A stretch of DNA of 64,000 bases. Origin: a virus. The translations under genes were made by a program, and so were the position numbers. Of the stretch, positions 2,131-63,970 are shown piece after piece; within the stretch, counting starts at the first letter, position 1, and the number at the start of each line of letters is the position of its first letter. The notes beneath the pieces are model-generated. The model did no database searches. It was given only the letters and a program-made list of their open reading frames with translations, and had not been told where the DNA came from. Location of the stretch: positions 1-64,000 of IMG/VR virus record IMGVR_UViG_3300030380_005901. One strand, written 5' to 3'.

Positions 2131-3456
2131 TTAATATCCTCTTGTGAATGAGTTCCAGTATTCTTCAGTCTTCTCCCATATCTCCCCTTGTAATGAACCC
2201 CAAACTCTATTAAATTCATTACCAGTGATAGCGTAAGTATCTTCGATATGTTTCATTAAATCAATATGCCAGTTAGTATTTGGCGAACTAATATCGTTAG
2301 TAAACGCATCGTCTGCAGCAACCGCAGATAAAAAATCATCGTCCCTAATACTAGCGGAATAGTTTATCATAGGGAAATAAACAAGTCCCCTATCAAAGTC
2401 CCACACTATTTCATTAAGGACTATATCGGTGACTTTTTCTACAAACCCCAAATCTACACTTTCATCTAATCTAGGTCTGGTTTTATAAGATAAATCGAAA
2501 AACCTTTTAAAGTATTTTTCAAAGATATCATTAAAATACGAATACATTACCTCCTCTATTTCATCAATTTCTGTAATACCAAACATTTCTAAATATCTGG
2601 TGAAAATCTTACCCATAGTAAACTCATCATCAAAATTCTCAACCATCTTTTTACAATAGTGTGCACTCAATACAAATACACTTCCTGTTTGTCTATCGGC
2701 AATAAATGGTGTTATAACACTAGCACCAGTTAAATTGAAGGGTTTAGTCTCTGACACCATTGTATCTACAACTTTTTGTAGGAATTCTGTTTGTTTATCT
2801 AAAAACTTAGATTCTCTTAGGTAATCAACATGTACTCTTAGATATGGTGATACATGTTCTTTTTTGGATAATACCATATTAATAATATGTTCATCGTACT
2901 TATCCCAAAATAGTTCTTCTATTTCATTATATGTTAATCCCCAATAATCTTTTAGATAATTTTCTAAACATTCTGGTATATAGTTAAAATAAGGTGCTTC
3001 ACTTCCCCAACGAATACCAACCTGTAAACTTTTACATTTACCATCATATAAGTCTATTTCCTTATAGGCTGCATCTCTGAATTTAGTATTCTTAACTAAA
3101 TCATTATATACGTAGTCTAAATAGTCTTTTTGTTTATCTTCTATAGATTCATTGGTAAGAAATCTATGCCAAGGTTTTTTCTTATGATTTTCGGCACATT
3201 TACCTTTTATGTTTTTTTTATATTGTCTCCACGCATAATCACACTCTTCATTAGTTAATCCATATATATTTTTACAATGTCTAATAAAGGGTGGATATTT
3301 AACAATGTGGGGTAAAAGTATATGATCTATACTCAATGCTAGTGTATTATCGACAGAAAAAGGTATATACATTTCTCTCTTATTATAATCTATTTCAGTT
3401 TCATTGATTAATCTACTTACTACCTTATCTAAAAATTCTTTTTGTACTTTATCCAT
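2131..3456 (-). CDS. polyprotein of four copies of the 'FLDKVV...YGL.EE..W..Y' repeat domain
   Basis: Repeats separated by LTNES, LRES, LDES. Confidence 0.85.
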   Translation of the reverse strand: MDKVQKEFLDKVVSRLINETEIDYNKREMYIPFSVDNTLALSIDHILLPHIVKYPPFIRHCKNIYGLTNEECDYAWRQYKKNIKGKCAENHKKKPWHRFLTNESIEDKQKDYLDYVYNDLVKNTKFRDAAYKEIDLYDGKCKSLQVGIRWGSEAPYFNYIPECLENYLKDYWGLTYNEIEELFWDKYDEHIINMVLSKKEHVSPYLRVHVDYLRESKFLDKQTEFLQKVVDTMVSETKPFNLTGASVITPFIADRQTGSVFVLSAHYCKKMVENFDDEFTMGKIFTRYLEMFGITEIDEIEEVMYSYFNDIFEKYFKRFFDLSYKTRPRLDESVDLGFVEKVTDIVLNEIVWDFDRGLVYFPMINYSASIRDDDFLSAVAADDAFTNDISSPNTNWHIDLMKHIEDTYAITGNEFNRVWGSLQGEIWEKTEEYWNSFTRGY

Positions 3457-3802
3457 TATCGTTAGGTGTTATCTTAATGGACTTACCATCTATTTCTACT
3501 TTAAAGTCATTTGGAGAAAGGTTTTCGAAATAATCTTTTAAATATTTGATCTTACCGTCTTTTCCCTTCATTGTGGTGGGAACATCCACTTGTCTTACAT
3601 AAGGTGGTTTAGGTGGTTTCTTTTCCACCCATTTAACAGTATTTTTGTCCGTAGAGTATGCATCGAAATCATCTTTCGTTGTAAACTCCCAATACTTATC
3701 ACCTTTACGTTTTCTATAATAGGTGTCACCACCTATATCTCTTACTTGATATTCGTACTGAGAAACTTCTTCTAATAATATTTTTCTTATTATGTCTCTC
3801 AT
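3449..3802 (-). CDS. leader-tagged hypothetical protein (MRDIIRKILLEE)
   Basis: N-terminal leader shared with 15129, 15658, 16184, 23749, 26746, 28038. Confidence 0.8.
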   Translation of the reverse strand: MRDIIRKILLEEVSQYEYQVRDIGGDTYYRKRKGDKYWEFTTKDDFDAYSTDKNTVKWVEKKPPKPPYVRQVDVPTTMKGKDGKIKYLKDYFENLSPNDFKVEIDGKSIKITPNDNG

Positions 3803-3812
3803 TTAAATAAAT

Positions 3813-4697
3813 TTATTGTAACATAATAGATACGATAGCACCACCCGGAGCAAAATTAATTTTTGCAACTTTCCCTTTTCCACTATTACTAGCGGCGTTA
3901 TTAATTGCATTTACAATGTCCTCTCTTTCTTCAGTATCACTACCCATAGCAGTAAACCCATCAGTAATAGTTTTATTTATAAATCCTTCTAATCCACCGT
4001 TGTTTCTTAATTCATAATCTAAGTCTACAATATCTGAATATGTTTCTAATTCTTTTATTGCGTTTACAATTGATTCTTCATCTTCATGAGCCAAATAATC
4101 TGCACCCCTCATTTTATCACCTACACTACCAATATCTTTTTTATCTAATCCCATAGTAGTAAGTGGACGAACTACAACAAATCCATATCTATCCATATCT
4201 CTAGGTACTGATCTATTTCTATCGTAAATTGGATTTAAATCACTAGGTTTGTAAGATGAATTAGTCTTAGTAGTAATTAAGTCTTCTATTATATCTTTAC
4301 CAACGTAATTACCTGTTGTGTCACCTACAATGTCAAATGCAGTAAATATTATATCTTTCATTTCTTCCATTCTAGCTCTACCTAATTCTGCGTTTCTATC
4401 TCTACTACCTGTAGAAGATGTGCCACTACCAATAGTAATAAATTTAGGTATGTTACCTTGTGACATAAATTTTTCTATTGTTGGTAGTGAATTCATAATG
4501 TCTCTAGATAATTGTTGTGCAGCCATCGTTTTATCACTGTCAGAAATAGTATCTTCACCTTCCTCAAAAAACATTTGGTATCCTACTGGGCGCGCACTTT
4601 GGTTTATAACTGGTTCTATACCTAATTTATCTTCACCTAATAATCTTTTATTAGATTCTATTATTAATTCTCTTTTTAATTTTGCTAATCTTCCCAT
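3813..4697 (-). CDS. leader-tagged protein with OmpA-C-like peptidoglycan-binding motif
   Basis: MGRLAKLKRELIIESNKRLLGE leader; ITIGSGTSSTGSRDRNAELGRAR resembles the OmpA-like G-x-T...G....N..LS..RA motif. Confidence 0.6.
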   Translation of the reverse strand: MGRLAKLKRELIIESNKRLLGEDKLGIEPVINQSARPVGYQMFFEEGEDTISDSDKTMAAQQLSRDIMNSLPTIEKFMSQGNIPKFITIGSGTSSTGSRDRNAELGRARMEEMKDIIFTAFDIVGDTTGNYVGKDIIEDLITTKTNSSYKPSDLNPIYDRNRSVPRDMDRYGFVVVRPLTTMGLDKKDIGSVGDKMRGADYLAHEDEESIVNAIKELETYSDIVDLDYELRNNGGLEGFINKTITDGFTAMGSDTEEREDIVNAINNAASNSGKGKVAKINFAPGGAIVSIMLQ

Positions 4698-4698
4698 T

Positions 4699-5400
4699 TT
4701 AGTATTTTTTATATTTAAATTTTATTTTAGCTAAACAATCCATAAAATCGCGCATATCACCCATTTTCCGATCAGTTGGTCTTCTCATATCATTTCCAAA
4801 TTTTATATCATTCCCAATTCCCACAGGTCGTGGTTCAGGTGGTGGACCTATTAATCCACTAATACAAATTTCCATTCCTTTACAATCATTTTGATATGAA
4901 TTTGGCATAGGCTCATCAAAACCTATTTGAGTACACGCACATTGAGTTACACAGAAGTCTTCTTTTCTAAGACTCGGTGTAAATTCCAATTCCTCACACA
5001 TCAATTCATATGTTTTTGGTCCAACTATACCATCCACTTTTAAAACTACACCGTATTTTCTTTGGAATTCCTCTACTGCTTTTTTGGTTTCTTTTCTAAA
5101 TAAACCATCACATTCTCTATAGTCTTTCATACAACCCTCTAAGATACCACCCCCTTCTTTGGGTACATTAAAACCATTATTATCTAAAAGATGTTGTATT
5201 TTTTTAACCATATCTCCATTAGATCCATTTCGTGCATGTTTAATATTACACTGTATCAAACAGAAGTCATTGTCACCTCTATCTATTTTACCCACACTAC
5301 TTTCTTGTAATAAGGATTTCTCTTCAACAATTAAATTAGATAATAATTTTTTATTTGCTTCTTCGATTAATTGTCTTTTTAATTTTTCTATTCTTCCCAT
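4699..5400 (-). CDS. leader-tagged peptidoglycan-binding-domain protein
   Basis: GSNGDMVKKIQHLL...DGLFRKETKKAVEEFQRKYG..LKVDGIVGPKT matches PG_binding_1. Confidence 0.85.
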   Translation of the reverse strand: MGRIEKLKRQLIEEANKKLLSNLIVEEKSLLQESSVGKIDRGDNDFCLIQCNIKHARNGSNGDMVKKIQHLLDNNGFNVPKEGGGILEGCMKDYRECDGLFRKETKKAVEEFQRKYGVVLKVDGIVGPKTYELMCEELEFTPSLRKEDFCVTQCACTQIGFDEPMPNSYQNDCKGMEICISGLIGPPPEPRPVGIGNDIKFGNDMRRPTDRKMGDMRDFMDCLAKIKFKYKKY

Positions 5401-5434
5401 TTTATTTTTTTATATAAATATGTCAATATTATTA

Positions 5435-6187
5435 TTAATTAGTTTTTATCGTATCAAATAATTTATTTAAAAATACCCTATAAGTATTAAAATTAGTGTA
5501 AGGTTCACCTTCTGCACCTGATAAATGATTATCTTTACCTATAAATTCATTTTTTATTTTTTTATTATGTGTTGTTTCAGTTGTTAAATCAAAGTAAGGG
5601 ATTTTTTTTAATTCAGATTGTATTTTTAATTCATTATTAAATAAAAAATGATTGTCGAATTGATTTTCATAGTCAATAACTGGCATTGTACGGACACCAC
5701 CGTTAAACATATACTTTTGTAAATCATATAAGTTTGGCATATTTAACCCATTGATAATAAATTTTATATTAGGAAAAAGTATTTTTAAATTATCAATGTA
5801 AACCATATAATTATTCACTAAATTTTTATAAAATTCTTTTTTATTAATACTTTCTTTTTTATTATAAACTTTAAAATAATAATTATACTCCACATCAACC
5901 TGTCCAAACTTCATTATAGAAAAAGTATTAACATCACTATTAGAAGGTTGAGTTTGTTTTAATATTTTCTCTATTGTTTTTGAATAATCTAGAGTACTAT
6001 CTGTATTTGTCAACCCTTTCATTGAAGCTGAAGATTTATAATTATTATATAATTTAATGTTATCAATAGATAAAGATTTATCTCTGAAAAAACATTTAGA
6101 GTGAGAATCCCCAAATATATGAATTTCATATTTTCTTTTAGTATCTATATTACTATCAATCTTAATCATCAAATTAAATTTTCTCAA
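5435..6187 (-). CDS. SGNH/GDSL-like hydrolase
   Basis: IFGDSH (block I), FGQVD, DNHL (block V). Confidence 0.7.
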   Translation of the reverse strand: MRKFNLMIKIDSNIDTKRKYEIHIFGDSHSKCFFRDKSLSIDNIKLYNNYKSSASMKGLTNTDSTLDYSKTIEKILKQTQPSNSDVNTFSIMKFGQVDVEYNYYFKVYNKKESINKKEFYKNLVNNYMVYIDNLKILFPNIKFIINGLNMPNLYDLQKYMFNGGVRTMPVIDYENQFDNHFLFNNELKIQSELKKIPYFDLTTETTHNKKIKNEFIGKDNHLSGAEGEPYTNFNTYRVFLNKLFDTIKTN

Positions 6188-9393: not shown

Positions 9394-9861
9394 TTAATTT
9401 AAGTTATCTCTTAACGCATTTAATTTTCTTGACAACCTCTCTCTTGCTTCTGGACTTGTTATCGTTTTAATTCCCGCAATTAAGTGAGCTATCGCTCCCG
9501 CTGCAAATATCATAAGAGGTGCTTTCATCTTATTCTTTCCGTTCTTTCCACTCTCAATCTTTTCTATGTCTTTTTCTGCTTTCTCAATTTGTTTTTCTAA
9601 TTTTTTTTGGGTTTTCATTAGTTTTTTCTCTTTTTTAAGATCACTTAATGTCTTTTTAAATTGCATTTTACTAATATTTCTATCCATCACTAAACTTTCT
9701 AATTTTTTAGTCATAGATTCAATTTCTTTCTCTAACTCTTTATTGTGATCACTAACTTCTTTTTCTTTAGCATCTAACTTAGATTGTTCTACAATAATCC
9801 CTAAATTTCTTTGGTTGGCTTCTAAAATAGCCTGTCTTTTTAATTTTTCTAATCTACCCAT
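9394..9861 (-). CDS. leader-tagged coiled-coil protein with C-terminal hydrophobic segment
   Basis: MGRLEKLKRQAILEANQRNLGIIVEQ leader; K/E heptads; LMIFAAGAIAHLIAG. Confidence 0.8.
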   Translation of the reverse strand: MGRLEKLKRQAILEANQRNLGIIVEQSKLDAKEKEVSDHNKELEKEIESMTKKLESLVMDRNISKMQFKKTLSDLKKEKKLMKTQKKLEKQIEKAEKDIEKIESGKNGKNKMKAPLMIFAAGAIAHLIAGIKTITSPEARERLSRKLNALRDNLN

Positions 9862-9878: not shown

Positions 9879-10097
9879 TTAAGTGTTTAAATCAGGTAAT
9901 GTACCTAACGCAGGAATAGCTCTTCTTCTCACACCACCATAACCACCTGCAGAACCACCTCTAACTACAACATCATATATTCTACTTAACATTTCTCTAT
10001 CCTCTTCAGTAAATGATACTGGACGACTCTCCCCTTCTACCCAAGATTGTTCAGAAATAATTTCTTTATATTGTTTTTCAGTTATTCTAATTTTCAT
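9879..10097 (-). CDS. leader-tagged small protein
   Basis: MKIRITEKQYKEIISEQ. Confidence 0.75.
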   Translation of the reverse strand: MKIRITEKQYKEIISEQSWVEGESRPVSFTEEDREMLSRIYDVVVRGGSAGGYGGVRRRAIPALGTLPDLNT

Positions 10098-10120: not shown

Positions 10121-10444
10121 TTAATACTTTAAAACATGATCTACTAAATTTTGTAAATCATCGGATAAATAATCAATCTGATAGTGAAAATCTTCAATTA
10201 TAAATCTCGCTATCTTATCTATCACCATATCTACCTTATCTGAAGGTATCATCTCTAGAATCGCTTCTCTTTCCATTAAGCTATCCCTTACTTCTTTTTC
10301 AATCATTTCAATAGTAATGGGACGGTGAAAATGGTTAACCATTTCTTCATCACCCATACGTTGTTCAGATAGTGTTCTCTTTACAATTCTTTTAAGGTCT
10401 GATTCTGTTAATCTAATTACCTTACCATTTTTCTTAATTTTCAT
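10121..10444 (-). CDS. leader-tagged small protein
   Basis: MKIKKNGKVIRLTESDLKRIVKRTLSEQ. Confidence 0.85.
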   Translation of the reverse strand: MKIKKNGKVIRLTESDLKRIVKRTLSEQRMGDEEMVNHFHRPITIEMIEKEVRDSLMEREAILEMIPSDKVDMVIDKIARFIIEDFHYQIDYLSDDLQNLVDHVLKY

Positions 10445-10489: not shown

Positions 10490-11005
10490 TTACAAACCAA
10501 AAAATCCATCCACATCAATTTCAGGATCAACCATAAATGTATCAGCTCTACCATCATTAGACTTTAGTGATAATGTACATGGTTCTTGCAACATACCATC
10601 TATCTCATCTACTATTCTCAATAACCAATTTTTTATTGGGGTATAGAATTTATTATCTGCATCTATTTCCTTTTCTAAATGATTTATAATCATATTTTCA
10701 TATGCTTCAGCAGCTTGTTTATCTAAATCAGACCCCAAAGTCTTATTAAATTTAGAAAAGAAATCAACATAGTTAGTACCTGTAGAATCGTTGGTTCTTT
10801 CAGGATCATCAAACATACCATCACTACCTTCCCACCAATTTTCTACTTCTTTGCAGAAATTATATGCTTCATTGTAATCTGTATCACTCATTAGTTTTTG
10901 TGTTAACTTCACCATATCAGACTGTTCGTTTATTACTCTTTTTACAATTCTTTTAAGATCCGATTCTGTTAATCTGATTACCTTACCGTTCTTTTTAATT
11001 TTCAT
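10490..11005 (-). CDS. leader-tagged acidic protein
   Basis: MKIKKNGKVIRLTESDLKRIVKRVINEQ; first 23 aa identical to the neighbouring gene. Confidence 0.85.
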   Translation of the reverse strand: MKIKKNGKVIRLTESDLKRIVKRVINEQSDMVKLTQKLMSDTDYNEAYNFCKEVENWWEGSDGMFDDPERTNDSTGTNYVDFFSKFNKTLGSDLDKQAAEAYENMIINHLEKEIDADNKFYTPIKNWLLRIVDEIDGMLQEPCTLSLKSNDGRADTFMVDPEIDVDGFFGL

Positions 11006-11310: not shown

Positions 11311-11595
11311 TTATCTTCCATTGTTTAGTCTATCTCCAATAATTGTCTTATATTCATCCCACACATAATAAATCTCATCATCGTTTAATCCATATATATC
11401 TCTACAATGTTCAATGAAAGAAGGAGGGGTGGAATAAGTGGAGGAAGGGTGAAAAAACTTGGGGACATAGTATGATTCAAAAGGATAAGCGTGAAAGGAA
11501 TTAAAAAAAGGTATATAAATTGTTTCCTCATCAAAATCTATATTAGTTTCCTTAACTAAACTTTTTAATACGTTATTTAAATATTTATCTTCCAT
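11311..11595 (-). CDS. single-copy repeat-domain protein with pyrimidine-rich variable core
   Basis: YLNNVLKSLVKETNIDF...IPF[variable]FIEHCRDIYGLNDDEIYYVWDEY. Confidence 0.85.
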   Translation of the reverse strand: MEDKYLNNVLKSLVKETNIDFDEETIYIPFFNSFHAYPFESYYVPKFFHPSSTYSTPPSFIEHCRDIYGLNDDEIYYVWDEYKTIIGDRLNNGR

Positions 11596-12343: not shown

Positions 12344-12389
12344 TACTTATCTTTGTCCCTATAAGTAAATATATTTGAATACTAAAAAA

Positions 12390-12640
12390 TACCTGGAAAA
12401 TTTTTTCCCATTACCCTTTTCCCACCAGAAATGGGTTGTGTTTTCAGAACTACGAAATTTCCTGGAAAATTTATGGAGAACATCACCCCCCCTTATTTCG
12501 TCAAAACACCCCCAGAGGGAAGGGGGGATACGTAGGGGTACTGGAGGGGGGACCCCCCAGAGAGGTTAAATAGGGGGGAGATAATAACGAATAAAATGAT
12601 AATTTAAAGAGTCCCCCCCTACCTATGTTGGAAAATCTGT
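12390..12640. other. G/C-homopolymer-rich non-coding block (candidate origin, packaging site or RNA)
   Basis: Multiple G5-7/C5-7 runs; CCTGGAAAATTT twice; minus-strand promoter-like sequence at 12646-12677 points into it. Confidence 0.45.
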
Positions 12641-12687
12641 TATACAAATATACGTATAATAAATGACAATATCAAATATATGGGCAT

Positions 12688-12958: not shown

Positions 12959-13005
12959 ACTATAAATATAAACCTTTTATTTGGAATAGTCAATAGTAAA
13001 ATGAA

Positions 13006-13218: not shown

Positions 13219-13264
13219 ATTAATAAATATAATGAAAAAATTTCATAAAAAAAAGTCCATTATT

Positions 13265-14578: not shown

Positions 14579-14869
14579 TTAAATTGGCATCCACCAATCT
14601 TTAATTTCTTCTTCTAATTCATCTCTATAATCCCAATCATCTTCTCTTTCTGGTTCTTCGGTTTCTAAATATTTTTCAATACCCCAACCAATGACGTTAT
14701 CATAGTATGAGAATGCATCACCAAATTCATCCATATTATGTTTGTCCATTATTGGTCCAATATATTTATCTAATATATGTCTATACAATTCTTCTCCTGT
14801 TCTTTGTTCAGTTAATACTCTTTTAACTATACGTTTAATATCTGATTCGTTTAATTTAATTACTTTCAT
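14579..14869 (-). CDS. leader-tagged acidic protein
   Basis: MKVIKLNESDIKRIVKRVLTEQ; TATTTATA upstream. Confidence 0.85.
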   Translation of the reverse strand: MKVIKLNESDIKRIVKRVLTEQRTGEELYRHILDKYIGPIMDKHNMDEFGDAFSYYDNVIGWGIEKYLETEEPEREDDWDYRDELEEEIKDWWMPI

Positions 14870-15128: not shown

Positions 15129-15656
15129 TTATTTTGTTAATTCCAAATCATCATCCTTTTTGATTTTAAATTTACTTATATCTACTACTTTTATATTTTT
15201 ATCTGTTTTTAATTGTATCTCCTCCTCATATGGATATTTTATATTGTTAACTAAAGTAGCTTTATAATCTATGTCCTCTGTCGGAACAGATATAGTAATA
15301 ATCCATAAATCATCTTCTATGTCTGGTTCATCTTCTTTAAAATGAAATGGGTATAAATTTTTCACCCAATCCATATCATATACATCAGGATTAGTTACAT
15401 AATGGAATCCTAATTTTTTAACATCAATTTCTTCTTTATTTTTAACCCAAACTACTCGGTATAAAAAAATATCTTTATAAACTTTTAATTTATTTAAATC
15501 ATCTATTAAGTCATTTAAATTAAATTCACTTTCAGTAGTATAAAGTAAATCTTCTAAAACATTCCTTTCATCAATAGTTAAATTATCTATATCCCCATAA
15601 AAGTCATCATAATTTACTGTCTCTTCCTTTAATATTTTTCTAATAAGGTTTTTCAT
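15129..15656 (-). CDS. leader-tagged ADP-ribosyltransferase-like protein
   Basis: MKNLIRKILKEE; LYRVV...GFHYV...YEEEI; homologous to the C-terminus of 6174..9293. Confidence 0.6.
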   Translation of the reverse strand: MKNLIRKILKEETVNYDDFYGDIDNLTIDERNVLEDLLYTTESEFNLNDLIDDLNKLKVYKDIFLYRVVWVKNKEEIDVKKLGFHYVTNPDVYDMDWVKNLYPFHFKEDEPDIEDDLWIITISVPTEDIDYKATLVNNIKYPYEEEIQLKTDKNIKVVDISKFKIKKDDDLELTK

Positions 15657-15657: not shown

Positions 15658-16128
15658 TTAAATTTCTTCTATAAAGTACTCTGTAGGATTTGTAGTAAAA
15701 ACTCTTAATTCTGATTCATTAAAATCACCATACAAATACATATCGAATGAATCATACCAGTTTATATCACTTAAATTAAATAACGCAGTTATTCTAAATA
15801 ATTTTAAATCATTGGGGTTATCTTCTACGGCTTCCCAATCTATTACCTCATCACCGTATTTTTCGAACGACCAATAATTACCAAAGGGTTTTCTAATATC
15901 TTCTTTATTTTTAACCGCAACATTTCTATACAATACAATTTTATCTCCCTCTACTATATATTTTTTAATAGTATCTATAAAATGTTTTTTATAGTAATTT
16001 ACTGATTCACCTTCACTATATTTTGAATGAGAATTTAAACCCCATTTACCTGTGGTACGATCAAAGTCGCTTTGATTATATTTGAACTCTATCTCTTCCT
16101 TTAATATTTTTCTAATAAGGTTTTTCAT
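15658..16128 (-). CDS. leader-tagged ADP-ribosyltransferase-like protein
   Basis: MKNLIRKILKEE; LYRNV...GNYWS...NESEL (R-S-E pattern). Confidence 0.6.
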   Translation of the reverse strand: MKNLIRKILKEEIEFKYNQSDFDRTTGKWGLNSHSKYSEGESVNYYKKHFIDTIKKYIVEGDKIVLYRNVAVKNKEDIRKPFGNYWSFEKYGDEVIDWEAVEDNPNDLKLFRITALFNLSDINWYDSFDMYLYGDFNESELRVFTTNPTEYFIEEI

Positions 16129-16183: not shown

Positions 16184-16558
16184 TTAAAATAGTTCTTTAA
16201 ACACCGGTGGTACATTAGGATTGTCCAAATCCAATATTTTAGTTTTAATAGTATCTTCACCTATCTCTATTGCTTTTGTCATTCTATGATTACCATCTAA
16301 TATATAGGACAACTTACCATTTTTTTTTACTATTACTATGGGATAACTTAAATCCGCTTTTAGTATTCTTTCTGGTTCAGTTTTTACTCTTGTAAAAGGA
16401 TTATCTAATGTGTCTACTATATATTGTACAGGTATATCATATACTTTATGGTTAGATAAATAATTTAAAACGTCATGTATACTTATCTTCTCAGCATCTG
16501 TTACCCAAGAAGTATCTCCCCATCCTTCACTCAATATTTTTCTAATAAGATTTTTCAA
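16184..16558 (-). CDS. leader-tagged ParB/Srx-like protein
   Basis: ADLSYPIVIV...ILDGNHRMTKA. Confidence 0.8.
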   Translation of the reverse strand: MKNLIRKILSEGWGDTSWVTDAEKISIHDVLNYLSNHKVYDIPVQYIVDTLDNPFTRVKTEPERILKADLSYPIVIVKKNGKLSYILDGNHRMTKAIEIGEDTIKTKILDLDNPNVPPVFKELF

Positions 16559-17085
16559 TATATTTTTCGTTGTATACTATCGATTATACCTTGCCCATAT
16601 TCATATACCAAAGTCCTCTCATTATCATTCAATGTTTTATCTTCCATTGCGTCTTCTAATATTCGTTGTATTTCCCCTATATCGTATTCAGTAAGGTCGT
16701 CAAAACTAAGTTCGTCATGTTCGTCATACACCCCATTCTCCAAATGAATCGCAAACTCGGACAGTTCCTCTAACCAAAAATCCATTCCTTTGGGTTCAAA
16801 CTCCATTTGTTCATTCAATACCCTTTTTACTATACGTTTAATATCTGATTCGTTTATTTCAACTACATCCATTTCTGTAGGTGGTAATTCATCCGCTTTT
16901 AAGTTAAGTACCTCAACAGATTCGTTACATATGTATTTAGTTACTTTTACGTCATATAATTCATTAAACTTCTCTACTTGTTTCATACCTCTTATGAGAT
17001 ACTGTTCTTCCGTTGTATATACTCTACGATGTTCTAAATGTCTAGTGTCTGGATCTCTAGCTTCTATAATGTAAAAAATTTTCAT
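16555..17085 (-). CDS. fusion protein with internal copy of the leader (EINESDIKRIVKRVLNEQ)
   Basis: DNA at ~16827-16855 matches the leader of 14579..14869. Confidence 0.75.
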   Translation of the reverse strand: MKIFYIIEARDPDTRHLEHRRVYTTEEQYLIRGMKQVEKFNELYDVKVTKYICNESVEVLNLKADELPPTEMDVVEINESDIKRIVKRVLNEQMEFEPKGMDFWLEELSEFAIHLENGVYDEHDELSFDDLTEYDIGEIQRILEDAMEDKTLNDNERTLVYEYGQGIIDSIQRKIY

Positions 17086-17097: not shown

Positions 17098-17835
17098 TTA
17101 ATCTACTGTACCGTTAAATAAATCATCTAACTCTCCTTCGTAATTCTCACCAAAATAACTTAGATTCTCTTCCATTTGATGTAATATTCTTTGGGCAACT
17201 CTTACAATATCCTCATTCAAATGAGGGTTGTTTAATTCTCTACCTCTTCTCATTTGTTCTCTAATTTCTGCCCTTATTATCGACTCTAACCTTCTTCGAG
17301 TTATACTAGTTTGTCGATATTCATAATGATCATCCGTATATTCTCTTTGTTCAGTTAAAGTAAATGAATCATCATCCATAAATAAAAACTCCGCATTTTC
17401 AAATACGTTAGTTAATATATCATTTAAATCCTCATAGGTTAGTTTAGTATCACTATAATCTAACATTGATATTATTTCATTTGTTAGATTATCTGCAATC
17501 ATCTCTTTGACTTGTTCTTTGTCAGAATAGTCTCTTGATTCATCCATAGGAAATCTATTTTCTTTACCCTTAGTATCAAAAAACTTTAATTCATATAATT
17601 TTTTCTGATATATTTGTTCCGCATCTTTAAGATCCCATGAAGTTTGTATACTTTCTTCTTCTAAGTAATCAGTATCTAACCATTCACCGGTATCTTTATT
17701 TACTACTATTCTTCTAAGTGCTAAACCTACATCATAATAATCATTATGTGGACCTTCTGGTGGTGAATATTCCTCTGCTTCTGATGGAGCTTGTTCTAAT
17801 AATATTTTTTTTATAATTTCTTTAGTTGATTTCAT
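17098..17835 (-). CDS. leader-tagged multi-segment acidic protein
   Basis: MKSTKEIIKKILLEQ; internal MDES and LTEQ. Confidence 0.8.
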   Translation of the reverse strand: MKSTKEIIKKILLEQAPSEAEEYSPPEGPHNDYYDVGLALRRIVVNKDTGEWLDTDYLEEESIQTSWDLKDAEQIYQKKLYELKFFDTKGKENRFPMDESRDYSDKEQVKEMIADNLTNEIISMLDYSDTKLTYEDLNDILTNVFENAEFLFMDDDSFTLTEQREYTDDHYEYRQTSITRRRLESIIRAEIREQMRRGRELNNPHLNEDIVRVAQRILHQMEENLSYFGENYEGELDDLFNGTVD

Positions 17836-17844: not shown

Positions 17845-18384
17845 TTATTCATTCATACTATTGGTTCTATCACTAAACCTTTGGTGTATTTTTAATATCA
17901 TCATACCCAACTCTTGTATTCTATCAGTTAAAGTTGCTATTTTTTCTGCAACTTGTAACTCTAATTCATCTTGTGTCATATCAAATGATAATCCTGTATA
18001 AAATGATCCACCATCATTCTCCCCACTACCAACTAACATTCTAAAGTATTTGTTTATTTTAACCAAAGCACTTATAAATGTTTTTAATACTGTTTTAAAA
18101 TCATCATCAATATATATTTCTTTAACATAATCAGGCATTTGTTTAATATATTCACTTATCTTTTGATTCAGATTATATATACCGTTTGTTAGTTCTGACT
18201 TACTTAACTCTTCATCTCTTACACCATTTGCTAATTTAGATACTAACATTAGTAACTCCATAGTTTTACCATTTATAATACTGTGTAATGGTCCGGCATG
18301 TGTTGCCATAACCTCTGGACTGTCATATCCGCCTACTTCTTTGAGTACTAATTTTAATTGTGATTCAGTTAATTTGATTTTCAT
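17845..18384 (-). CDS. leader-tagged helical protein
   Basis: MKIKLTESQLKLVLKE; TATTTATA upstream. Confidence 0.8.
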   Translation of the reverse strand: MKIKLTESQLKLVLKEVGGYDSPEVMATHAGPLHSIINGKTMELLMLVSKLANGVRDEELSKSELTNGIYNLNQKISEYIKQMPDYVKEIYIDDDFKTVLKTFISALVKINKYFRMLVGSGENDGGSFYTGLSFDMTQDELELQVAEKIATLTDRIQELGMMILKIHQRFSDRTNSMNE

Positions 18385-23748: not shown

Positions 23749-24414
23749 TCAAAATTCCCTACGTTTTTTTTCTATCTCCTTTTTGAAATGACGTGGTTGA
23801 TCCCACCATCCATCACCTGTTTCTCTGAAATCTCGTTCACTTTTAAAATTCCCCTCTTTATCGACATCAACTACCTTAATTCTTCTATTCCCATCACTAA
23901 AATCTGAATTGTTTGCAATTGCATTTATTTTTTGTTTATAATCGGCAAATAACTTTTCTATATTCTTTTTAAACTCTACAGTAACTTTCTCCGCTTCTTC
24001 ACTATAGGTTTTTAGGCTATCAATTGCATCTTTAACGTCATATAATTCATAATTACCTTTATCGGGTGTCGTATGACCCAATTTTTCTGTTTTGGGTTGG
24101 TAGTAAGGTGTAAAATATTCATCATCAGTATAGGTTAATAAGTTATATGGTTCATAATTATTATGAGGATCATCACCAAAAGAACCATGACCCTTACTCT
24201 CTATGTCTGTTTCACGAATACCTGCCGAAAGATTCCATGATTCAGGATTTATACTAAATGCAATTCTTTTCTTTATTTGTGGGATATATGTTCTCCACCC
24301 ATATTTAGACCTTGCCACTTCTAACTCTGTTTCTGGTGACATGTTAATTTCTGGTGATGTTAAATCATCAGGATTAAATTCTTCTTTAAGTATCTTTTGG
24401 ATAAGATGTTTCAT
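23749..24414 (-). CDS. leader-tagged hypothetical protein
   Basis: MKHLIQKILKEE; TATTTATA upstream. Confidence 0.8.
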   Translation of the reverse strand: MKHLIQKILKEEFNPDDLTSPEINMSPETELEVARSKYGWRTYIPQIKKRIAFSINPESWNLSAGIRETDIESKGHGSFGDDPHNNYEPYNLLTYTDDEYFTPYYQPKTEKLGHTTPDKGNYELYDVKDAIDSLKTYSEEAEKVTVEFKKNIEKLFADYKQKINAIANNSDFSDGNRRIKVVDVDKEGNFKSERDFRETGDGWWDQPRHFKKEIEKKRREF

Positions 24415-26745: not shown

Positions 26746-26967
26746 TCAATATCTACCCTCCAAATAAACATGTATTATTTGAGGAATTCTTACACACTTG
26801 TGTGGTTTGCCTTCTGAGTCTGTACAATCAATTTCCACTAAATTATTTAAATATTTTTTTATATTATATGGTGCATTAGATAATCTTCTCTCAATATAAA
26901 ACTTACTATATAACTTATCTTGATCGTAATATGATTCTTTTAATATTTTACGAATAGTCTCTCTCAT
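26746..26967 (-). CDS. leader-tagged small protein
   Basis: MRETIRKILKES; TATTTATA upstream. Confidence 0.8.
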   Translation of the reverse strand: MRETIRKILKESYYDQDKLYSKFYIERRLSNAPYNIKKYLNNLVEIDCTDSEGKPHKCVRIPQIIHVYLEGRY

Positions 26968-28037: not shown

Positions 28038-28706
28038 TTAATCGTATCCTTTCCTCATTAACTCAACCTCCCAACTATTATTATTTTTTAATTGTACCTC
28101 TATTTCTGGTCTCAATTTATTTAATAATGGTGAAAAAGACATAATGTATTCCCATATAATATCTTTTACTTCACCTTCTACTTCCCAACCAAAACTATCA
28201 TCGTTTAATGCATCATAAATAGAAAATTCTTTTAGTTCATATTCCCCATCATCTTCTTCTACGTTTATATGAACACTTCCTTCCGGATATATTGTTGCAT
28301 CTATCATTATTTCATCGTATAATATATCATTTACAAGTCCTTTCGAAATCATATGATCTCTCCATGCTGCATCTCCAGGTAACACCTCAGTACTTGAATT
28401 AAAAAAATCAGTTATTTTGTTAATAGTAAACTTAAAATCATAATTACCAATACCAACATCTAAAGGGAAATCTTTATCAAGTAACCATATTTTTTTACCT
28501 ATAGGTACATTTTTCAAATCCTCCACAATTTTTTGTCTAATGTATAGTGCCATATCAGAATCAATAGCGTAAGTATCTACAAATTGTTTAGTATTCATAG
28601 GATCAGTTTCCCACCTTTTTAATACATTATCCACATATTTTTTTTTGTTGTTTGAAATAACAACTTCAGTATGTTCTTTTAATATTTTACGAATGATATC
28701 TCTCAC
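28038..28706 (-). CDS. leader-tagged hypothetical protein
   Basis: MRDIIRKILKEH (GTG start); TATTTATA upstream. Confidence 0.8.
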   Translation of the reverse strand: MRDIIRKILKEHTEVVISNNKKKYVDNVLKRWETDPMNTKQFVDTYAIDSDMALYIRQKIVEDLKNVPIGKKIWLLDKDFPLDVGIGNYDFKFTINKITDFFNSSTEVLPGDAAWRDHMISKGLVNDILYDEIMIDATIYPEGSVHINVEEDDGEYELKEFSIYDALNDDSFGWEVEGEVKDIIWEYIMSFSPLLNKLRPEIEVQLKNNNSWEVELMRKGYD

Positions 28707-29829: not shown

Positions 29830-30357
29830 TTATATTCTAAATGTTTTATTTTGAAATTGTTTTATAGTATCTAACATAACTTTTTTTATAATAGTTTGAG
29901 TTTCTGGACTTAATTTAAATTGTTGTCCACAACGTTTTATATTAGAGTCAAACTTACTCTCAAACGAATTTGTTGCTTCAACATTCTTAGCAGTTTTCTT
30001 TTTAGTTTTAATCATATCTGCATTACGAACTAAATTTTTATTAACATGTTTATCACCACTACCTTTAATTTCGTTACCAGCACTATCTAGTGAACTGTTA
30101 ATACACGCCATTAATTTATTGAAGTTACCACCAACAATAACTTTATTGTTGATTCCATTATCTTTTAATGCCTTTTTAATTTTCTTAGTTAATCTGTTTG
30201 ATTTAGATTTAGCAGTTTGTCTATACGCTAATATTGCGGCAGTTAAACCAATGACTTCATTAATTGGTTCTTTTTTTTCTGTCACTATCCTTTTAACTAT
30301 TTTTTTTAAATCTCCTTCACTTAAGTGAATAATTTCATTATTCTTTTTTATTTTCAT
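29830..30357 (-). CDS. leader-tagged basic protein
   Basis: MKIKKNNEIIHLSEGDLKKIVKRIVTE...INE. Confidence 0.8.
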   Translation of the reverse strand: MKIKKNNEIIHLSEGDLKKIVKRIVTEKKEPINEVIGLTAAILAYRQTAKSKSNRLTKKIKKALKDNGINNKVIVGGNFNKLMACINSSLDSAGNEIKGSGDKHVNKNLVRNADMIKTKKKTAKNVEATNSFESKFDSNIKRCGQQFKLSPETQTIIKKVMLDTIKQFQNKTFRI

Positions 30358-31543: not shown

Positions 31544-32224
31544 ATGAAAAACATATTTTATTTAATCTTATTATCTATTATAATTATGAGTTGTGGTTCT
31601 AATGTTGAATCACCGTCACCTATTGTTACAGAAACTGAACCAGAAGTAGTTACAACTAAAAAAGTTTTAACACAAAAAGAAATAGATTCTTTTTATGATG
31701 AAATAACTATGGGTACTGAATTAAGTAATTATACTCAAAGATTCTGGTATAAAAAAGATGTATACATATATCTCTATGATAGAGATGATAGTGTGTATGT
31801 TAATGAATTTAACAAAATAGTTGATGAATTAAACAATTTAATTGAGAGAATAAACATAGTTGTAACAGATGATATTATGGAATCTAATCTGCGTATTTCT
31901 ATTACGGATGCTGAAACTTTTATAAAACGTGCAAACTTAAATAATCCTAAAAATAAAGATATAGTGTATATGGCTTTAGGTGTCGTATTTTCTAAATTAG
32001 ATAAAGTATCTAATGAAATAGTATATTCCTACACATTCGTTCAAAAAACAAATAAGAAAAACGTTGACTTTTGTACGTTAAGAGAAGAACTTACACAATC
32101 TTTAGGTTTCTTTAAAGATACTTATTCTTTCTCCAACAGTGTATTCAGTCAAATTAAAACAGAAGAAGTGTTAGAGTATACAGAGTTAGACAAAGCAATA
32201 ATTAAAAAACATTATAGTAATTAA
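31544..32224 (+). CDS. lipoprotein, DUF2927-like (zincin-like)
   Basis: Lipobox IMSC; LREELTQSLG...DT....SVF....YTELD. Confidence 0.75.
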   Translation: MKNIFYLILLSIIIMSCGSNVESPSPIVTETEPEVVTTKKVLTQKEIDSFYDEITMGTELSNYTQRFWYKKDVYIYLYDRDDSVYVNEFNKIVDELNNLIERINIVVTDDIMESNLRISITDAETFIKRANLNNPKNKDIVYMALGVVFSKLDKVSNEIVYSYTFVQKTNKKNVDFCTLREELTQSLGFFKDTYSFSNSVFSQIKTEEVLEYTELDKAIIKKHYSN

Positions 32225-33903
32225 TCCTTTTTAAATTCTATTTTATTTAAATCTATCATGTTTAAATAAGATGGATCCACTCTGGTGTTATCTTGATCTC
32301 GATAAATTTTATCTTTTTCCATGTCGATAAAATCTTCAATAGATTTAGGATCTTCATTATAATGTTCTCTATAATATTTATCTATTTCTTCACCAGTTAA
32401 TATTTTACACTGTGGACAAGTATCTTCACCATCTATAATAAAATCTTCTGTTTGTACGGCATCCGCTATCATTTTTTCTCCCTTAACAATTCTAAATACG
32501 TCCATATATAATCTATATTTCCATGGTAATGATTTTATTACAGTATCTGACATTAAGTTAGGTAAAGAAAAAGATAAAGTTTTATTTTTACCATAAGATT
32601 TTTCAGTTTGTCCTCCAGTACTGACTGCACCATTTGACTTTTTAAATTCTATTTCTTCTTTAGAGTTACCCAACTTTCTATATAATCTAAACCCTATTTT
32701 AGATTCCTTATCACCCATATTAACAATTAAATTGTCACCATTAATTTTTACTGAACCTAATGGTGGAACTTGAGTTGTAATTGGGTCTACTTCATCTTCC
32801 TCTGGTGGTTCTGGTATCACCAATTCACCTCCAACATATTTTTTACACCATTGGCGAGTTAAATCGAATCCTTTTAGAGAAGTGTCAGTTACTTTTACAC
32901 CTAATTTGTAAGTGGCACTATCCGTACTCTGATTATTCCAACCTCCAGAACATAACATCTCAGGTAAGTTACTACCACTTTCTTTAAGTGCTTTAATACC
33001 TAATGCATAATTACCAGTCGCTTTATTACAGTCACTACTACTATGTCCTTTACAATATGTAAAATGTACAGTATCACCTGCACCAAACGGATACCATCCG
33101 TAAACTGGACCAATAAATACAAAAAACGTCCAAACTTGATTTACTCTTTTGGAAGAATCCTCAAAATGAAAAGGGTTTGAAGGTTGTTTACTAGATGCTA
33201 TATCCTGTCCAGTTTTACTTTTTGGTAAATCTATTGCAAAACCTTCTTGATGATTACTCTTCCCTACTGGTGCAGTTGATCCGTCTACGTAATCAACCAT
33301 TATTTGTTGGTGTATTGAATCCCTATAAGTAGATTCATAACCAAAACCACCAATAGCATCTCCGATTGCAGCTAAACTAGGTTGTGCACTGTTATTAACA
33401 TAATTATTATTTTCATAAGGATGATCACCACTCCCACTTTGATGGGTAAATATATGGTTATTTTCAGGTGTTACTCTAACTATCTCTGTTGCATTAAAAA
33501 ATTCTTTAGACTTATTCCAAATTCCTTTATCTTTTATAGATTCTTTATTTATATATTTATCATACCACTTAGCTGCTTGTCTTTTCCATGCATTACCTTT
33601 TAACCCCCTACCCTTATTTTTAGATCCATATTTTAATTTTTGTACAAATATTACAGGTATACCATCTGAGGTATTTTTTACTTCTTCCATTGAGGCAGGA
33701 TAAACATATTTTGCTCTATGGTCGGGTCCTGAACTATTAGAGTACGTACCATAAGGTGCCATAGTTTCACTATATTTTTTACACCCCTGATTGTTAAGAT
33801 TTCCACCACAAAAAGAAGGAATTGTCACTATCGCAGGCAGTTGCAATTCTTTTGATTCATTAATAATTAATTTTAATTGTTCTTCGGTGATTAATACTTT
33901 CAT
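32221..33903 (-). CDS. leader-tagged large protein with M15-type (SxHxxGxAxD) peptidoglycan peptidase motif
   Basis: MKVLITEEQLKLIINES; YR....Q...APVGKSNHQEGFAIDL...YGW...HF. Confidence 0.6.
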   Translation of the reverse strand: MKVLITEEQLKLIINESKELQLPAIVTIPSFCGGNLNNQGCKKYSETMAPYGTYSNSSGPDHRAKYVYPASMEEVKNTSDGIPVIFVQKLKYGSKNKGRGLKGNAWKRQAAKWYDKYINKESIKDKGIWNKSKEFFNATEIVRVTPENNHIFTHQSGSGDHPYENNNYVNNSAQPSLAAIGDAIGGFGYESTYRDSIHQQIMVDYVDGSTAPVGKSNHQEGFAIDLPKSKTGQDIASSKQPSNPFHFEDSSKRVNQVWTFFVFIGPVYGWYPFGAGDTVHFTYCKGHSSSDCNKATGNYALGIKALKESGSNLPEMLCSGGWNNQSTDSATYKLGVKVTDTSLKGFDLTRQWCKKYVGGELVIPEPPEEDEVDPITTQVPPLGSVKINGDNLIVNMGDKESKIGFRLYRKLGNSKEEIEFKKSNGAVSTGGQTEKSYGKNKTLSFSLPNLMSDTVIKSLPWKYRLYMDVFRIVKGEKMIADAVQTEDFIIDGEDTCPQCKILTGEEIDKYYREHYNEDPKSIEDFIDMEKDKIYRDQDNTRVDPSYLNMIDLNKIEFKKD

Positions 33904-60849: not shown

Positions 60850-62142
60850 TTAATTATTCCTAAACAAATAAAAAGTATCGGAATAATTACCATCTTCTTG
60901 TGTAATTGTTTCTTCATTTTCATATCCATCGTACCCCGCTAACCAATGTCCTAACCCATCATCACTGACTGCACCTTCCATAACCTTATCTTTATCAATG
61001 TCTATATAACCGTACTCATATGCTTCAGAAATTTCCATACTCCCATAATCTAAAAAACTGTCTATATCATCTACGAATTCTTCTGTTCTATTGGCAGTTA
61101 CTTCTTCAATATACATTTCAATAAGACTTTCACCACTATATTTTTCTAATAGGGTTTTACTTTCTTCTAAATTGGTTTGTAGCTTATCTAATTCTCTATA
61201 AGATTCCTCCAAATATGTTTCCAATTCGTCAAAAATTCGTTTGTAATTATTATAGGTACTTTGTAACTCCTCAATCTCTTCACTATATTCCATATCCCTA
61301 TAGTTAGTTTCGTCATCACTATAATAATCTAATCTTTCAATATCTTTTTCTAATACTATTAATTCTGACTCAACATTGTCTTTTTTAAACTCTTTCTCTT
61401 GAATTTCTAATGATAGTTTTTTTATCTCCTCTTTATATAATTTAGTGTCATCCTCTGCACCTTCATATTCATTCCACTCCTCACTATTATAACCAAACAA
61501 TTCCTCTCTTAATTCATCTTCATCGTAATCTCTCACCCTTTCTTCTGTCCCTTCTCTTACATATAACTCTATTTCCCTTTCATCTGGTTGTACGTAATCC
61601 ATTAACCATTCTTGATTTAATGCATCATATCCTTCACTTTGAATTATATCATACACTCTAGTTTGTGCTGCGTTCCACGCTTCATCATAATCTCTAGCAA
61701 TTTGATAAGTTTCATAACCACCTCTAGCAACATCAAAAATTCTATACTCTGGTAGATAAGTGTTATAATAATCCCTTATATCTCCTTTATAAACTTCAAC
61801 AACAAATGTCTCTGGTATTCCTTTAAATTCTGACAATACTTTAATATAATCATTACTAGCAGTAGTATCTAACTCTACTACCTTATCCATATCTAAGAAA
61901 CCTCTTTTATGTTTACGTGCAGAAGGTGCATTTAACATATATAAATTAATTAATCTAACTTGTGTTTCTAAATCATCTATCGCCAATGTATCTTTTAAAA
62001 ATTTATATATTAGTTTATCAGTATTTTGACTAATTCCTTTATCATACATAAACTGTAATAACTTTCTATCTACGGGAGTTAGTTCAGTATACGTTACGTT
62101 ACTGTCATTAGATTCTGATATGAGGTTATATAGTTTCATCAT
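60850..62142 (-). CDS. leader-tagged acidic coiled-coil protein
   Basis: MKLYNLISES; N-terminal domain shared with 57389, 62139, 63161. Confidence 0.8.
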   Translation of the reverse strand: MMKLYNLISESNDSNVTYTELTPVDRKLLQFMYDKGISQNTDKLIYKFLKDTLAIDDLETQVRLINLYMLNAPSARKHKRGFLDMDKVVELDTTASNDYIKVLSEFKGIPETFVVEVYKGDIRDYYNTYLPEYRIFDVARGGYETYQIARDYDEAWNAAQTRVYDIIQSEGYDALNQEWLMDYVQPDEREIELYVREGTEERVRDYDEDELREELFGYNSEEWNEYEGAEDDTKLYKEEIKKLSLEIQEKEFKKDNVESELIVLEKDIERLDYYSDDETNYRDMEYSEEIEELQSTYNNYKRIFDELETYLEESYRELDKLQTNLEESKTLLEKYSGESLIEMYIEEVTANRTEEFVDDIDSFLDYGSMEISEAYEYGYIDIDKDKVMEGAVSDDGLGHWLAGYDGYENEETITQEDGNYSDTFYLFRNN

Positions 62143-63161
62143 CTTAATACTGATTTAAATGGGTGATTTGTTTGACCGAATCTCCACTCCTCCATTTCAT
62201 TTCTAAGAGTATTCTCTCCAAAATATTTAATTTTATCCGCCTGTTCATATAAAGGACTCTCATAACTATCATTATCTGGATTATATTCATCTTGTTCGGT
62301 ATCAAAAACTTCATCACTTAGGACAATTACCCCTTCATCGTTTTCAATCTTATCTTTCCAATCAGTATAACTCTCAGTGTAGTAATTACGTATTTGTGTA
62401 CCCGGAGATGGTAATTTTACTGGTGATATTAATTTAATTAGCATTTCATTAATTTCTTTATAATACATAGTTTCACATATCTCTGTGTCTCCACCACACC
62501 AATGACAATCTTCATCAGATCTACCATCACCATGACATTCATCACATTCTACTTCTTCGTATCCATCACCATTACATTCGTCACATTGTTCTTCTTCTCC
62601 TTCATCATCTCTAAAACTTCCTTCACCGTCACAATACCCACATTCTAATCTTTGTTCTCCTTCACCATCACAATACCCACAATCTTCATCTTCATATCCA
62701 CTACCACCACATTCTTCACAAGTCTCACATTCTTCCTCTTCTTGATCACTTACATAGTCATCATAATAATGAATATCATAAAAGTAATAATCATACGGTT
62801 CTAAAATAGGATCTGTCATCCAATCTTTAACCTTTAAATTAGTTGCCAAAAGAAATGCTAATTCATTTATTTTATCTTCATCTAAAAATAACGAATCTTT
62901 CATAAATTGATAGATATTATTATATGGTAAATCTCTATTCTTTTCTTCATCATTACCTTTGAAATACCTATTGAAAAATATATGTCTTTTACTACTCCAA
63001 CCCCACTTAGATGCTGCACCTCTAAAATAATCAAAATCAAACTTTTGTGAAATTATGTTCATTAACTTTCTATTAATTAGAGTATCTAATTTTGGTGCGG
63101 TGTAATTATCTTTTCTAAAGTTTGCACCGTATTCTTCCATTATGTTAATAAACTTTATCAT
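62139..63161 (-). CDS. leader-tagged protein with six DnaJ-type CxxCxGxG zinc-finger repeats
   Basis: CEECGGSG, CGYCDGEG x2, CDECNGDG, CDECHGDG, CHWCGG. Confidence 0.85.
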   Translation of the reverse strand: MIKFINIMEEYGANFRKDNYTAPKLDTLINRKLMNIISQKFDFDYFRGAASKWGWSSKRHIFFNRYFKGNDEEKNRDLPYNNIYQFMKDSLFLDEDKINELAFLLATNLKVKDWMTDPILEPYDYYFYDIHYYDDYVSDQEEEECETCEECGGSGYEDEDCGYCDGEGEQRLECGYCDGEGSFRDDEGEEEQCDECNGDGYEEVECDECHGDGRSDEDCHWCGGDTEICETMYYKEINEMLIKLISPVKLPSPGTQIRNYYTESYTDWKDKIENDEGVIVLSDEVFDTEQDEYNPDNDSYESPLYEQADKIKYFGENTLRNEMEEWRFGQTNHPFKSVLR

Positions 63162-63970
63162 TATCTATGTTCAATTAAATTTCTAAAATACGTTCTAAAT
63201 CTTATATTGTCAAAACTTATATCGCCTTGTGGATAATACACACTAATTTTTCCTTCCTTATCTTCTAAATTATCTATTTCAAAACTAGAATCTGTGTCTT
63301 CCCATCTTTCATACATTGTTATTAAAAGACCACTATTTTCATAATACCACTTTTCAAAGCTTTCCCATTCTCCAGTTTCACTTTTTAAAGGTTTATCTAA
63401 ATTAGGTTCGTTACTGTAAAATATTATTGTATCATCTGTTAGATGATATTCATCCTCAGTATAGTAATCAACACCAGATCCTTCACAATACTGACAATCA
63501 TCTTCTAATTCTCCACCACCACCACAGTCTTCGCACTCTACATTACCTTCACCATAATCATATTCTCCCGAACCCTGACAAGTTTGGCAGTCATTATTTT
63601 GTGTACCCATTCCATCACAATCTCCACACTCACCATCTAACTCCACTTGTTCTTCTTGTATTTCACCATAGTGACCTACTTCATACACATAAAACGTTTC
63701 ATCTGTTTTTATAGAATCAGTTAAATAATCTATCGGTCCATTTAAAAATATTATCCAACATAACTCTGAAATTTTTTGGTAATCTAATACCAATGTCTCT
63801 TCCATAAATTTAACAATACCTTTTTCTTCTATCTGCTCAATTATTGGGTTGGATAGATCACCATATCTAATATTTAAATCAAACTTTTCTGCAACTATAT
63901 TTAATAGTTTTCTATTAACTAGTGTATCTAAATCTTCGGATTCTTTTAGTATGTCTTTGAATCTAATCAT
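63161..63970 (-). CDS. leader-tagged protein with four CxxCxGxG repeats (paralog of neighbour)
   Basis: MIRFKDILKES; CGDCDGMG, CQTCQGSG, CEDCGGGG, CQYCEGSG. Confidence 0.85.
   Translation of the reverse strand: MIRFKDILKESEDLDTLVNRKLLNIVAEKFDLNIRYGDLSNPIIEQIEEKGIVKFMEETLVLDYQKISELCWIIFLNGPIDYLTDSIKTDETFYVYEVGHYGEIQEEQVELDGECGDCDGMGTQNNDCQTCQGSGEYDYGEGNVECEDCGGGGELEDDCQYCEGSGVDYYTEDEYHLTDDTIIFYSNEPNLDKPLKSETGEWESFEKWYYENSGLLITMYERWEDTDSSFEIDNLEDKEGKISVYYPQGDISFDNIRFRTYFRNLIEHR

Follow-up and report, generated by a model that had tools for sequence, protein, structure and literature searches.

Three forms of short N-terminal leader, hereafter tags, stand at the head of 26 open reading frames (ORFs) of an uncultured virus, the IMG/VR record IMGVR_UViG_3300030380_005901. 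We analyzed its first 64,000 nt (the window), which form the first part of a single 159,562-bp viral contig, called G000. The tags are N-terminal, portable between proteins, selected at the peptide level and tied to a T4-type lineage that bears an S77-family prohead protease. The explanation that we favor, with modest confidence, is that they are T4-style capsid-targeting propeptides, greatly expanded in number and cut by this protease. Under this proposal, a single T4-type capsid-targeting propeptide would underlie the three leaders, each being a variant of it. As a short N-terminal helix, basic and amphipathic, it would attach the protein just synthesized to the scaffolding core while the prohead assembles, and the lineage's gp21-type (Peptidase_S77) prohead protease would cut the leader at its hydrophobic-x-Glu end. 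Dozens of small proteins, unrelated, evolving fast and mostly acidic, would bear the tag together with cell-wall enzymes, and new cargo would be gained by copying or swapping it. Prohead-core binding, cleavage after Glu, presence in the virion and delivery to the host are the steps that we infer from the analysis.

Profiles made from three leader classes were searched against the 159.6-kb contig in all six frames. Class 1 (consensus M[KR]x[LI]IRKILKE) gave 8 matches at 21-27 bits, the next best scoring 7.7, and class 3 (MGR[LI]xKLKRxLIxE...) gave 4 matches at 49-55 bits, the next best scoring 5.8. Class 2, which occurs in a long form, (MKIKKNGKV)IxLTESDLKRIVKRVLxE, and a short form, MKIKLTESQLKxIIxE, yielded 14 matches at 22-35 bits and an internal match at 12 bits. 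Eighteen of the tagged ORFs lie in the window, on the minus strand between 3.4 and 33.9 kb, and the other 8 at 73.6-75.9, 97.5-99.0 and 117.8 kb. The original prediction, made from the letters of the window, had proposed four leader classes. Classes 1-3 were recovered by the profile search, whereas class 4 proved to be ordinary paralogy: the ORFs at 60850, 62139 and 63161, whose first 10 residues end in hydrophobic-x-Glu-Ser, are full-length paralogues of one another and of those at 66498 and 67663 outside the window, and we rejected class 4 as a portable leader. The leaders that it had located are real, but the positions given for them are the 3′ (stop-codon) ends of minus-strand ORFs, and the leaders themselves are at the high ends (Table 1).

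The leaders span 11-27 aa from Met1, start with Met-Lys/Arg, are basic and amphipathic, and in classes 1-3 all end in [LIV]-x-E. All 16 class 1 copies from G000 and two relatives described below (G001 and G004) have Leu at P3 and Glu at P1, with P2 variable, and the Glu is at least 90% conserved in an alignment of 150 representatives matched by the class 2 profile. Classes 1 and 2 have a common core, [LIV][IV][KR][KR][IV]L-x-E. A Sec, Tat or lipoprotein signal peptide was considered and rejected, as the leaders are charged amphipathic helices without a hydrophobic core; true signal peptides are present on other ORFs of the contig, such as 20970-21449.

Beyond this contig, degenerate DNA scans of IMG/VR for the class 1 and class 2 cores showed the same N-terminal placement. 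The class 1 core gave 128 matches, 78 of them with an ATG exactly 4 codons upstream, and 50 of the 52 class 2 matches have an ATG 6, 7 or 11 codons upstream; an ATG at so fixed a distance places the pattern far beyond chance. Class 3 was found on five contigs only, N-terminal every time. A search of 1.84 billion cluster representatives with the class 2 leader profile returned 4,214 proteins at E ≤ 0.001, of which 240 reached E ≤ 1e-10. Among the best 150 matches, the tag begins at residue 1 in ~145, a Pfam domain is found in just 9 (every one different), and 136 representative bodies fall into at least 94 families. Marine metagenomes were the source of all ten tagged clusters that we looked up, and no cultured phage was. 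A text search of the literature found the motif strings IRKILKE and LTESDLKRI in no paper of the library searched, and a word-based homologue search with residues 1-40 of a class 1 protein returned the query alone, this method being unsuited to short tags.

The tags are conserved as peptides. Across 31 distinct class 2 and 104 class 1 contexts in IMG/VR, the conserved positions use all six Leu codons and both Ser codon families, and conserved Arg residues are encoded by AGA, CGT, CGA and AGG. Such free codon variation at conserved residues indicates selection on the peptide, not on the DNA. Within G000, the leaders differ at synonymous sites, and the upstream DNA is unconserved except for a short promoter-like box. 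In the family of ORF 32221-33903, the leader is ~80% identical and kept where the bodies of homologues drop to 33% identity.

Leaders are also exchanged between orthologues. Next to the capsid gene, a body that is 66% identical between G001 and G004 is headed by class 2 in the former and by class 1 in the latter, and the body of ORF 3813-4697, class 3-led here, is class 2-led in a metagenomic homologue (34% identity, E = 9e-44). These swaps argue against class-specific addressing. With orthologous bodies trading classes and with one core in classes 1 and 2, the earlier suggestion of separate classes for different head locations or ejection order is not supported, and we rejected it.

The phage appears to be an uncultured marine jumbo myovirus of ~300 kb, distantly T4-like and probably with a Bacteroidota host. 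Its contig has 28.5% G+C, no terminal repeat and a CheckV completeness of 48%, and its minus strand carries nearly every gene. Judged by baseplate wedge and capsid protein, Flavobacterium phage immuto and Microcystis phage Mel-JY01 are its closest relatives in culture (27-45% identity); tblastn against cultured phages with a 1172-aa ORF and one tagged family gave no match or uncultured matches only. The relationship to immuto and the TAnnTTTG boxes described below point to a marine member of the Flavobacteriia as the probable host. Marine assemblies, those of Tara Oceans among them, contain proteins identical or near-identical to those of G000, and one such protein is on a 285-kb contig. We also observed that a protein identical to ORF 32221-33903 is recorded on 13 contigs, the longest of 285,471 bp, and a near-complete genome for this phage probably exists among public assemblies.

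The tie to a T4-type head comes from relatives. In each of four tag-bearing IMG/VR records (G001-G004; 257-295 kb, 98-100% complete), Gp23, a T4-type capsid protein, is encoded along with a gp21-type prohead protease (Peptidase_S77). Gp23 is also present in a fifth complete tag-bearing record (349 kb), and thus in 5 of 5 such records that are at least 98% complete, and in 9 of another 10 tag-bearing fragments that measure 98 kb or more. Phage immuto encodes both a Peptidase_S77 protease and a gp23-type shell protein. G000, G001 and G004 have ~50 proteins in common in conserved order (baseplate wedge 45% and ribonucleotide reductase 78% identical), and G001 carries 3 class 1 and 12 class 2 tags, G004 5 and 14. 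The gp21-like protease that the original prediction proposed to locate was absent from our search of this contig and present in the syntenic G001 and G004, and the missing half of the G000 genome very probably holds the same T4-type head module, judging from this synteny.

Promoter-like boxes associate the tagged genes with the head and tail genes. In G000, G001 and G004 alike, the 8-mer TATTTAT(A) tops the enriched upstream words. It lies upstream of capsid, scaffold, protease, portal, sheath and baseplate genes in G001 and G004, and in G000 it is ahead of 55 of 218 genes within 45 nt and 60 of 218 within 80 nt, often starting 11-13 nt before the ATG. A Bacteroidota-type TAnnTTTG box is found ahead of nucleotide-metabolism and repair genes and often starts exactly 12 nt before the ATG in G001 and G004. 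This spacing suggests that 5′ leaders are very short or missing and that promoters fall into two temporal classes; examples of upstream boxes in the window are at 5401-5425, 24415-24430, 26968-26982 and 28707-28721. TATTTAT is 3-4 times enriched before tagged genes (G000, 12/25 tagged vs 43/193 others, p = 0.012; G004, 10/18 tagged vs 75/338 others, p = 0.003), and in each genome 0-1 tagged genes have the host-type TAnnTTTG box upstream. As motif evidence, this preference for the head/tail-gene box over the host-type box speaks against the tagged genes being early, an outcome that the original prediction had raised against itself.

A further link to the head module comes from the more distant G003, where a 21-residue tag, M-K-x-K-E-L-E-x-L-I-E-N-K-V-R-x-I-L-K-E, contains the core [IV]-R-x-I-L-K-E as in class 1. 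It heads or punctuates 19 ORFs, 12 of them inside a 16-kb block with the protease and capsid genes, a position equivalent to that of the core-protein genes of T4. By inspection only, candidate maturation sites of the same form as the leader ends, ...LINE|A and ...LISE|V, can be seen in the capsid proteins of G001, G003 and G004.

Stripped of their leaders, the 26 tagged proteins fall into 24 blastp families, which bears out the claim that the bodies are unrelated. Peptidoglycan-binding domains occur in two of them: PG_binding_1 in ORF 4699-5400, and PG_binding together with NlpC/P60 in ORF 97553-98566. ORF 32221-33903 has an M15/VanY-type metal-binding motif pair and a weak language-model lead (0.77), and its assignment to M15 rests on these. 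A PDB sequence search with this ORF gave no match, and its AlphaFold2 model, from a 9-sequence alignment, was too poor for a structure search (mean pLDDT 51, catalytic region below 50). The cargo types listed in the original prediction were therefore found in part: the PG_binding_1 domain and the M15/VanY-type motif are present, but Pfam detected no OmpA, ART, ParB or Zn-finger domain in tagged ORFs at E ≤ 0.01. Peptidoglycan-binding, NlpC/P60 and M15-type cargo would fit enzymes used at entry. An untagged protein at 101049-102044 (-) has a peptidoglycan-binding-like segment similar to that of ORF 4699-5400 and, by eye, a Gly/Asp-rich amidase-like body; it is probably the true endolysin, in contrast to the tagged cell-wall enzymes. 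The bodies are otherwise mostly acidic, with an isoelectric point (pI) below 6 in 16 of 25 (median 5.0) and only 6 basic. On this count we rejected T4 internal proteins IPI-III in the narrow sense, as small, highly basic, DNA-associated proteins.

What supports the T4 capsid-targeting inference is the protease and capsid protein of the lineage, the [LIV]-x-E ends, the late-type box and the clustering in G003; the acidic bodies tell against it, and its class-specific addressing is not supported. Several observations weigh on the same negative side. The cargo is mostly acidic, unlike the highly basic internal proteins of T4, and Gln or Glu is the usual residue next to the terminal Glu; T4 protease sites have a small residue after the cleavage point. 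The tagged body at 117787 resembles, by eye, a homing-endonuclease-type protein, an odd cargo for a capsid. TATTTAT also precedes some non-structural genes, such as one for a DnaB-like helicase. The similarity of the G003 tag to class 1 spans the 8-9-residue core only, and the G003 profile misses the G000 tags. No capsid, portal, scaffold or protease gene lies on the 48%-complete contig, where Peptidase_S77 and Gp23 were searched for and not found, and its protease link therefore rests on relatives. The lineage association discriminates weakly in any case: T4-type capsid genes are common on large IMG/VR contigs, and since 2 of 4 large control contigs with chance tag matches only also have Gp23 (at weaker scores), the T4-likeness of tag-bearing contigs is weak evidence. 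Finally, the tags were found in no cultured phage (sources of the ten clusters, immuto, and tblastn of a tagged family).

The main rival to capsid targeting is that the tag is a docking helix for another hub, such as a phage chaperone, a modifying enzyme, an intermediate in tail or baseplate assembly, or a complex associated with membrane or DNA, in which case hydrophobic-x-Glu would be part of the helix and not a cleavage site. Portability, N-terminal position and peptide-level selection are predicted equally well by such docking, and cargo that is mostly acidic, unlike T4 internal proteins, suits it. We found no candidate partner gene, however, and the invariant Glu, the hydrophobic P3, the variable P2, the late-type box and the G003 clustering with the protease are specifically predicted by the protease model. 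We consider docking elsewhere unlikely, though a serious contender. The acidity of the bodies would also suit scaffold-like components of the prohead core, degraded and expelled at maturation like T4 gp22, gp67 and gp68. In G003, tagged ORFs lie between the protease and capsid genes, as gp67, gp68 and gp22 do in T4, whose core proteins are cut to small peptides that exit the head (PMC9958956). Enzyme-type cargo (NlpC/P60, the M15-like motif, peptidoglycan binding) would make little sense in a disposable scaffold, and 24 unrelated, fast-evolving bodies over thousands of clusters look accessory and not like assembly parts, which makes this explanation improbable.

It is about equally hard to credit that the tag is an expression cassette, comprising promoter, translation-initiation region and first codons, that spreads by recombination for strong late expression and encodes a functionless peptide. 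Copies within the genome are indeed near-identical in DNA. The adjacent genes starting at 10097, 10444 and 11005 have a common 5′ untranslated region, AAAAAAACATTATATT, and the leader of ORF 14579-14869 recurs inside ORF 16555-17085; neighbors with the same 5′ untranslated region and leader DNA suggest recent cassette copying. The TATTTAT box is 11-25 nt upstream of many tagged genes, and the codons are A-rich. Across phages, however, the amino acids are kept and the codons vary, including the Ser families and AGA vs CGN for Arg, and on this free variation at conserved residues we rejected a purely DNA-level cassette. The upstream DNA is otherwise unconserved, internal junction copies have no promoter role, and the leader is still ~80% identical ahead of a body at 33%.

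Some copies of the tag are internal. The class 2 copy inside ORF 16555-17085, missed in the original prediction, retains its own Met at residue 72, and its DNA is near-identical to that of the leader of 14579-14869; the ORF is either a fused two-module protein or has an alternative start. The only long plus-strand gene (114666-116612, 648 aa, no Pfam domain) has one weak class 2-like motif and one class 1-like motif, SIKNILREEL, at the junctions of its three parts and resembles tagged modules joined by fusion or as a polyprotein. Some metagenomic tagged proteins likewise have two tags, one N-terminal and the other between two modules. Tags at module junctions are expected for polyproteins cut by a protease.

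Table 1. Tagged ORFs and related features of the window (all on the minus strand; nt, positions in the window).
Feature	Coordinates	Length (aa)	Leader	Leader nt	Remarks
Class 1 ORF	3449..3802 (-)	117	MRDIIRKILLE	3770-3802	
Class 3 ORF	3813..4697 (-)	294	MGRLAKLKRELIIE	4656-4697	body homologous to class 2-led metagenomic protein
Class 3 ORF	4699..5400 (-)	233		5359-5400	PG_binding_1 domain in body
Class 3 ORF	9394..9861 (-)	155		9820-9861	
Class 2 short-form ORF	9879..10097 (-)	72	MKIRITEKQYKEIISE	10050-10097	
Class 2 long-form ORF	10121..10444 (-)	107	27 aa	10364-10444	
Class 2 long-form ORF	10490..11005 (-)	171	27 aa	10925-11005	
Class 2 ORF	14579..14869 (-)	96	21 aa	14807-14869	
Class 1 ORF	15129..15656 (-)	175	MKNLIRKILKE	15624-15656	
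Class 1 ORF	15658..16128 (-)	156		16096-16128	
Class 1 ORF	16184..16558 (-)	124		16526-16558	TTG start
ORF with internal class 2 copy	16555..17085 (-)	176	residues 72-92	16810-16872	
Class 1 ORF	17098..17835 (-)	245	MKSTKEIIKKILLE	17794-17835	leader shifted by 3 residues
Class 2 short-form ORF	17845..18384 (-)	179		18337-18384	
Class 1 ORF	23749..24414 (-)	221		24382-24414	
Class 1 ORF	26746..26967 (-)	73		26935-26967	
Class 1 ORF	28038..28706 (-)	222		28674-28706	GTG start
Class 2 long-form ORF	29830..30357 (-)	175		30277-30357	basic body
Class 2 short-form ORF	32221..33903 (-)	560	MKVLITEEQLKLIINE	33856-33903	M15/VanY-type motifs SNHQEGFAID, DTVH
"Class 4" ORFs	60850-62142, 62139-63161, 63161-63970 (-)				paralogue family continuing to 68.8 kb

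Elsewhere in the window, a repeated domain of ~100 aa is present in one to several copies per protein at 2131-3456, 6174-9293, 11311-11595, 11606-12343 and 45118-46713. Its units begin with a helix such as FLDKVVSRLINET or YLDKVLERLLKET that ends in hydrophobic-x-Glu-Thr/Ser. The tag profiles do not pick up this domain, which might put the same cutting rule to a second use, in polyprotein style. The stretch 12350-14570 (~2.2 kb) has no convincing minus-strand ORF, a weaker strand skew and only short, odd plus-strand ORFs, and neither Rfam (gathering threshold) nor ARAGORN found anything in it. The sole tRNA or Rfam match within the window is a tRNA-Glu (anticodon TTC) at 21-93 (-), right where the contig begins.

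The G000 tags were not found in phage immuto (MW353176.1). We note that immuto has a triplicated N-terminus of its own, MENFDLKKFLVEN(KLT), which ends in Leu-Val-Glu and occurs at ~118588 and in two other genes; one copy adjoins the terminase and portal genes. This phage is a possible culturable model for T4-like leaders beyond the enterobacterial phages.

A wider hypothesis, which we put forward tentatively and would not yet back over its alternatives, is that T4-like jumbo phages of a widespread, uncultured marine clade use one family of interchangeable tags to load dozens of unrelated, quickly evolving and mostly acidic effectors and cell-wall enzymes per genome into the capsid, to be trimmed by the protease and co-injected with the DNA. 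If so, no known repertoire of phage-delivered proteins would be larger than these tagged clusters, which number more than 4,000, and the system would be a natural case of plug-and-play cargo recruitment. Should the tags be capsid-targeting leaders, a single sequence rule would give a destination, the virion interior and afterwards the infected cell, to thousands of unnamed ocean-virome proteins, and the tagged proteins would be candidates for first-wave host takeover or anti-defence.

Known systems resemble the tags to different degrees. Encapsulin cargo-loading peptides are short and portable and send unrelated cargo inside a shell of the HK97 fold. They differ in being usually C-terminal, in not being removed by a protease and in binding the shell protein itself, and they have no sequence likeness to the tags. 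In phages phiKZ, 201phi2-1 and SPN3US, N-terminal propeptides of inner-head proteins are removed after Glu by a T4-related protease, and paralogues may have identical N-termini that are thought to be like the T4 capsid-targeting sequence (CTS) (PMC5694885). Their cleavage motifs are A/S-x-E, however, most of their propeptides exceed 100 residues, and they do not form a single short portable tag common to unrelated proteins.

The closest parallel is with the T4 proteins IPI, IPII, IPIII and Alt. The T4 CTS is a sequence of ~10 residues, MKTYQEFIAE, cut once beside the tag (PMC8442874); T4 propeptides have 10-20 residues and the protease cleaves C-terminal to Glu (PMC5694885). The internal proteins of T-even phages form a very diverse group with the CTS as their only common part (PMC3012670), and those of T4 are highly basic (PMC8442874). 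The likeness lies in a short leader that starts with Met-Lys and ends in hydrophobic-x-Glu on diverse proteins, in a lineage with a gp21-type protease and a gp23-type capsid protein, and in genes that are mostly in variable regions outside the head cluster. The differences are that the cargo here is mostly acidic, that Gln or Glu usually follows the terminal Glu, and that the system is known from its sequence alone. In addition, half a genome holds 26 tagged genes, compared to a handful in T4, with three leader forms of up to 27 residues and tags that also occur at internal module junctions. If our favored explanation is right, the CTS principle, known from a few proteins of E. coli phages, would have been scaled in marine jumbo phages into a modular cargo system.

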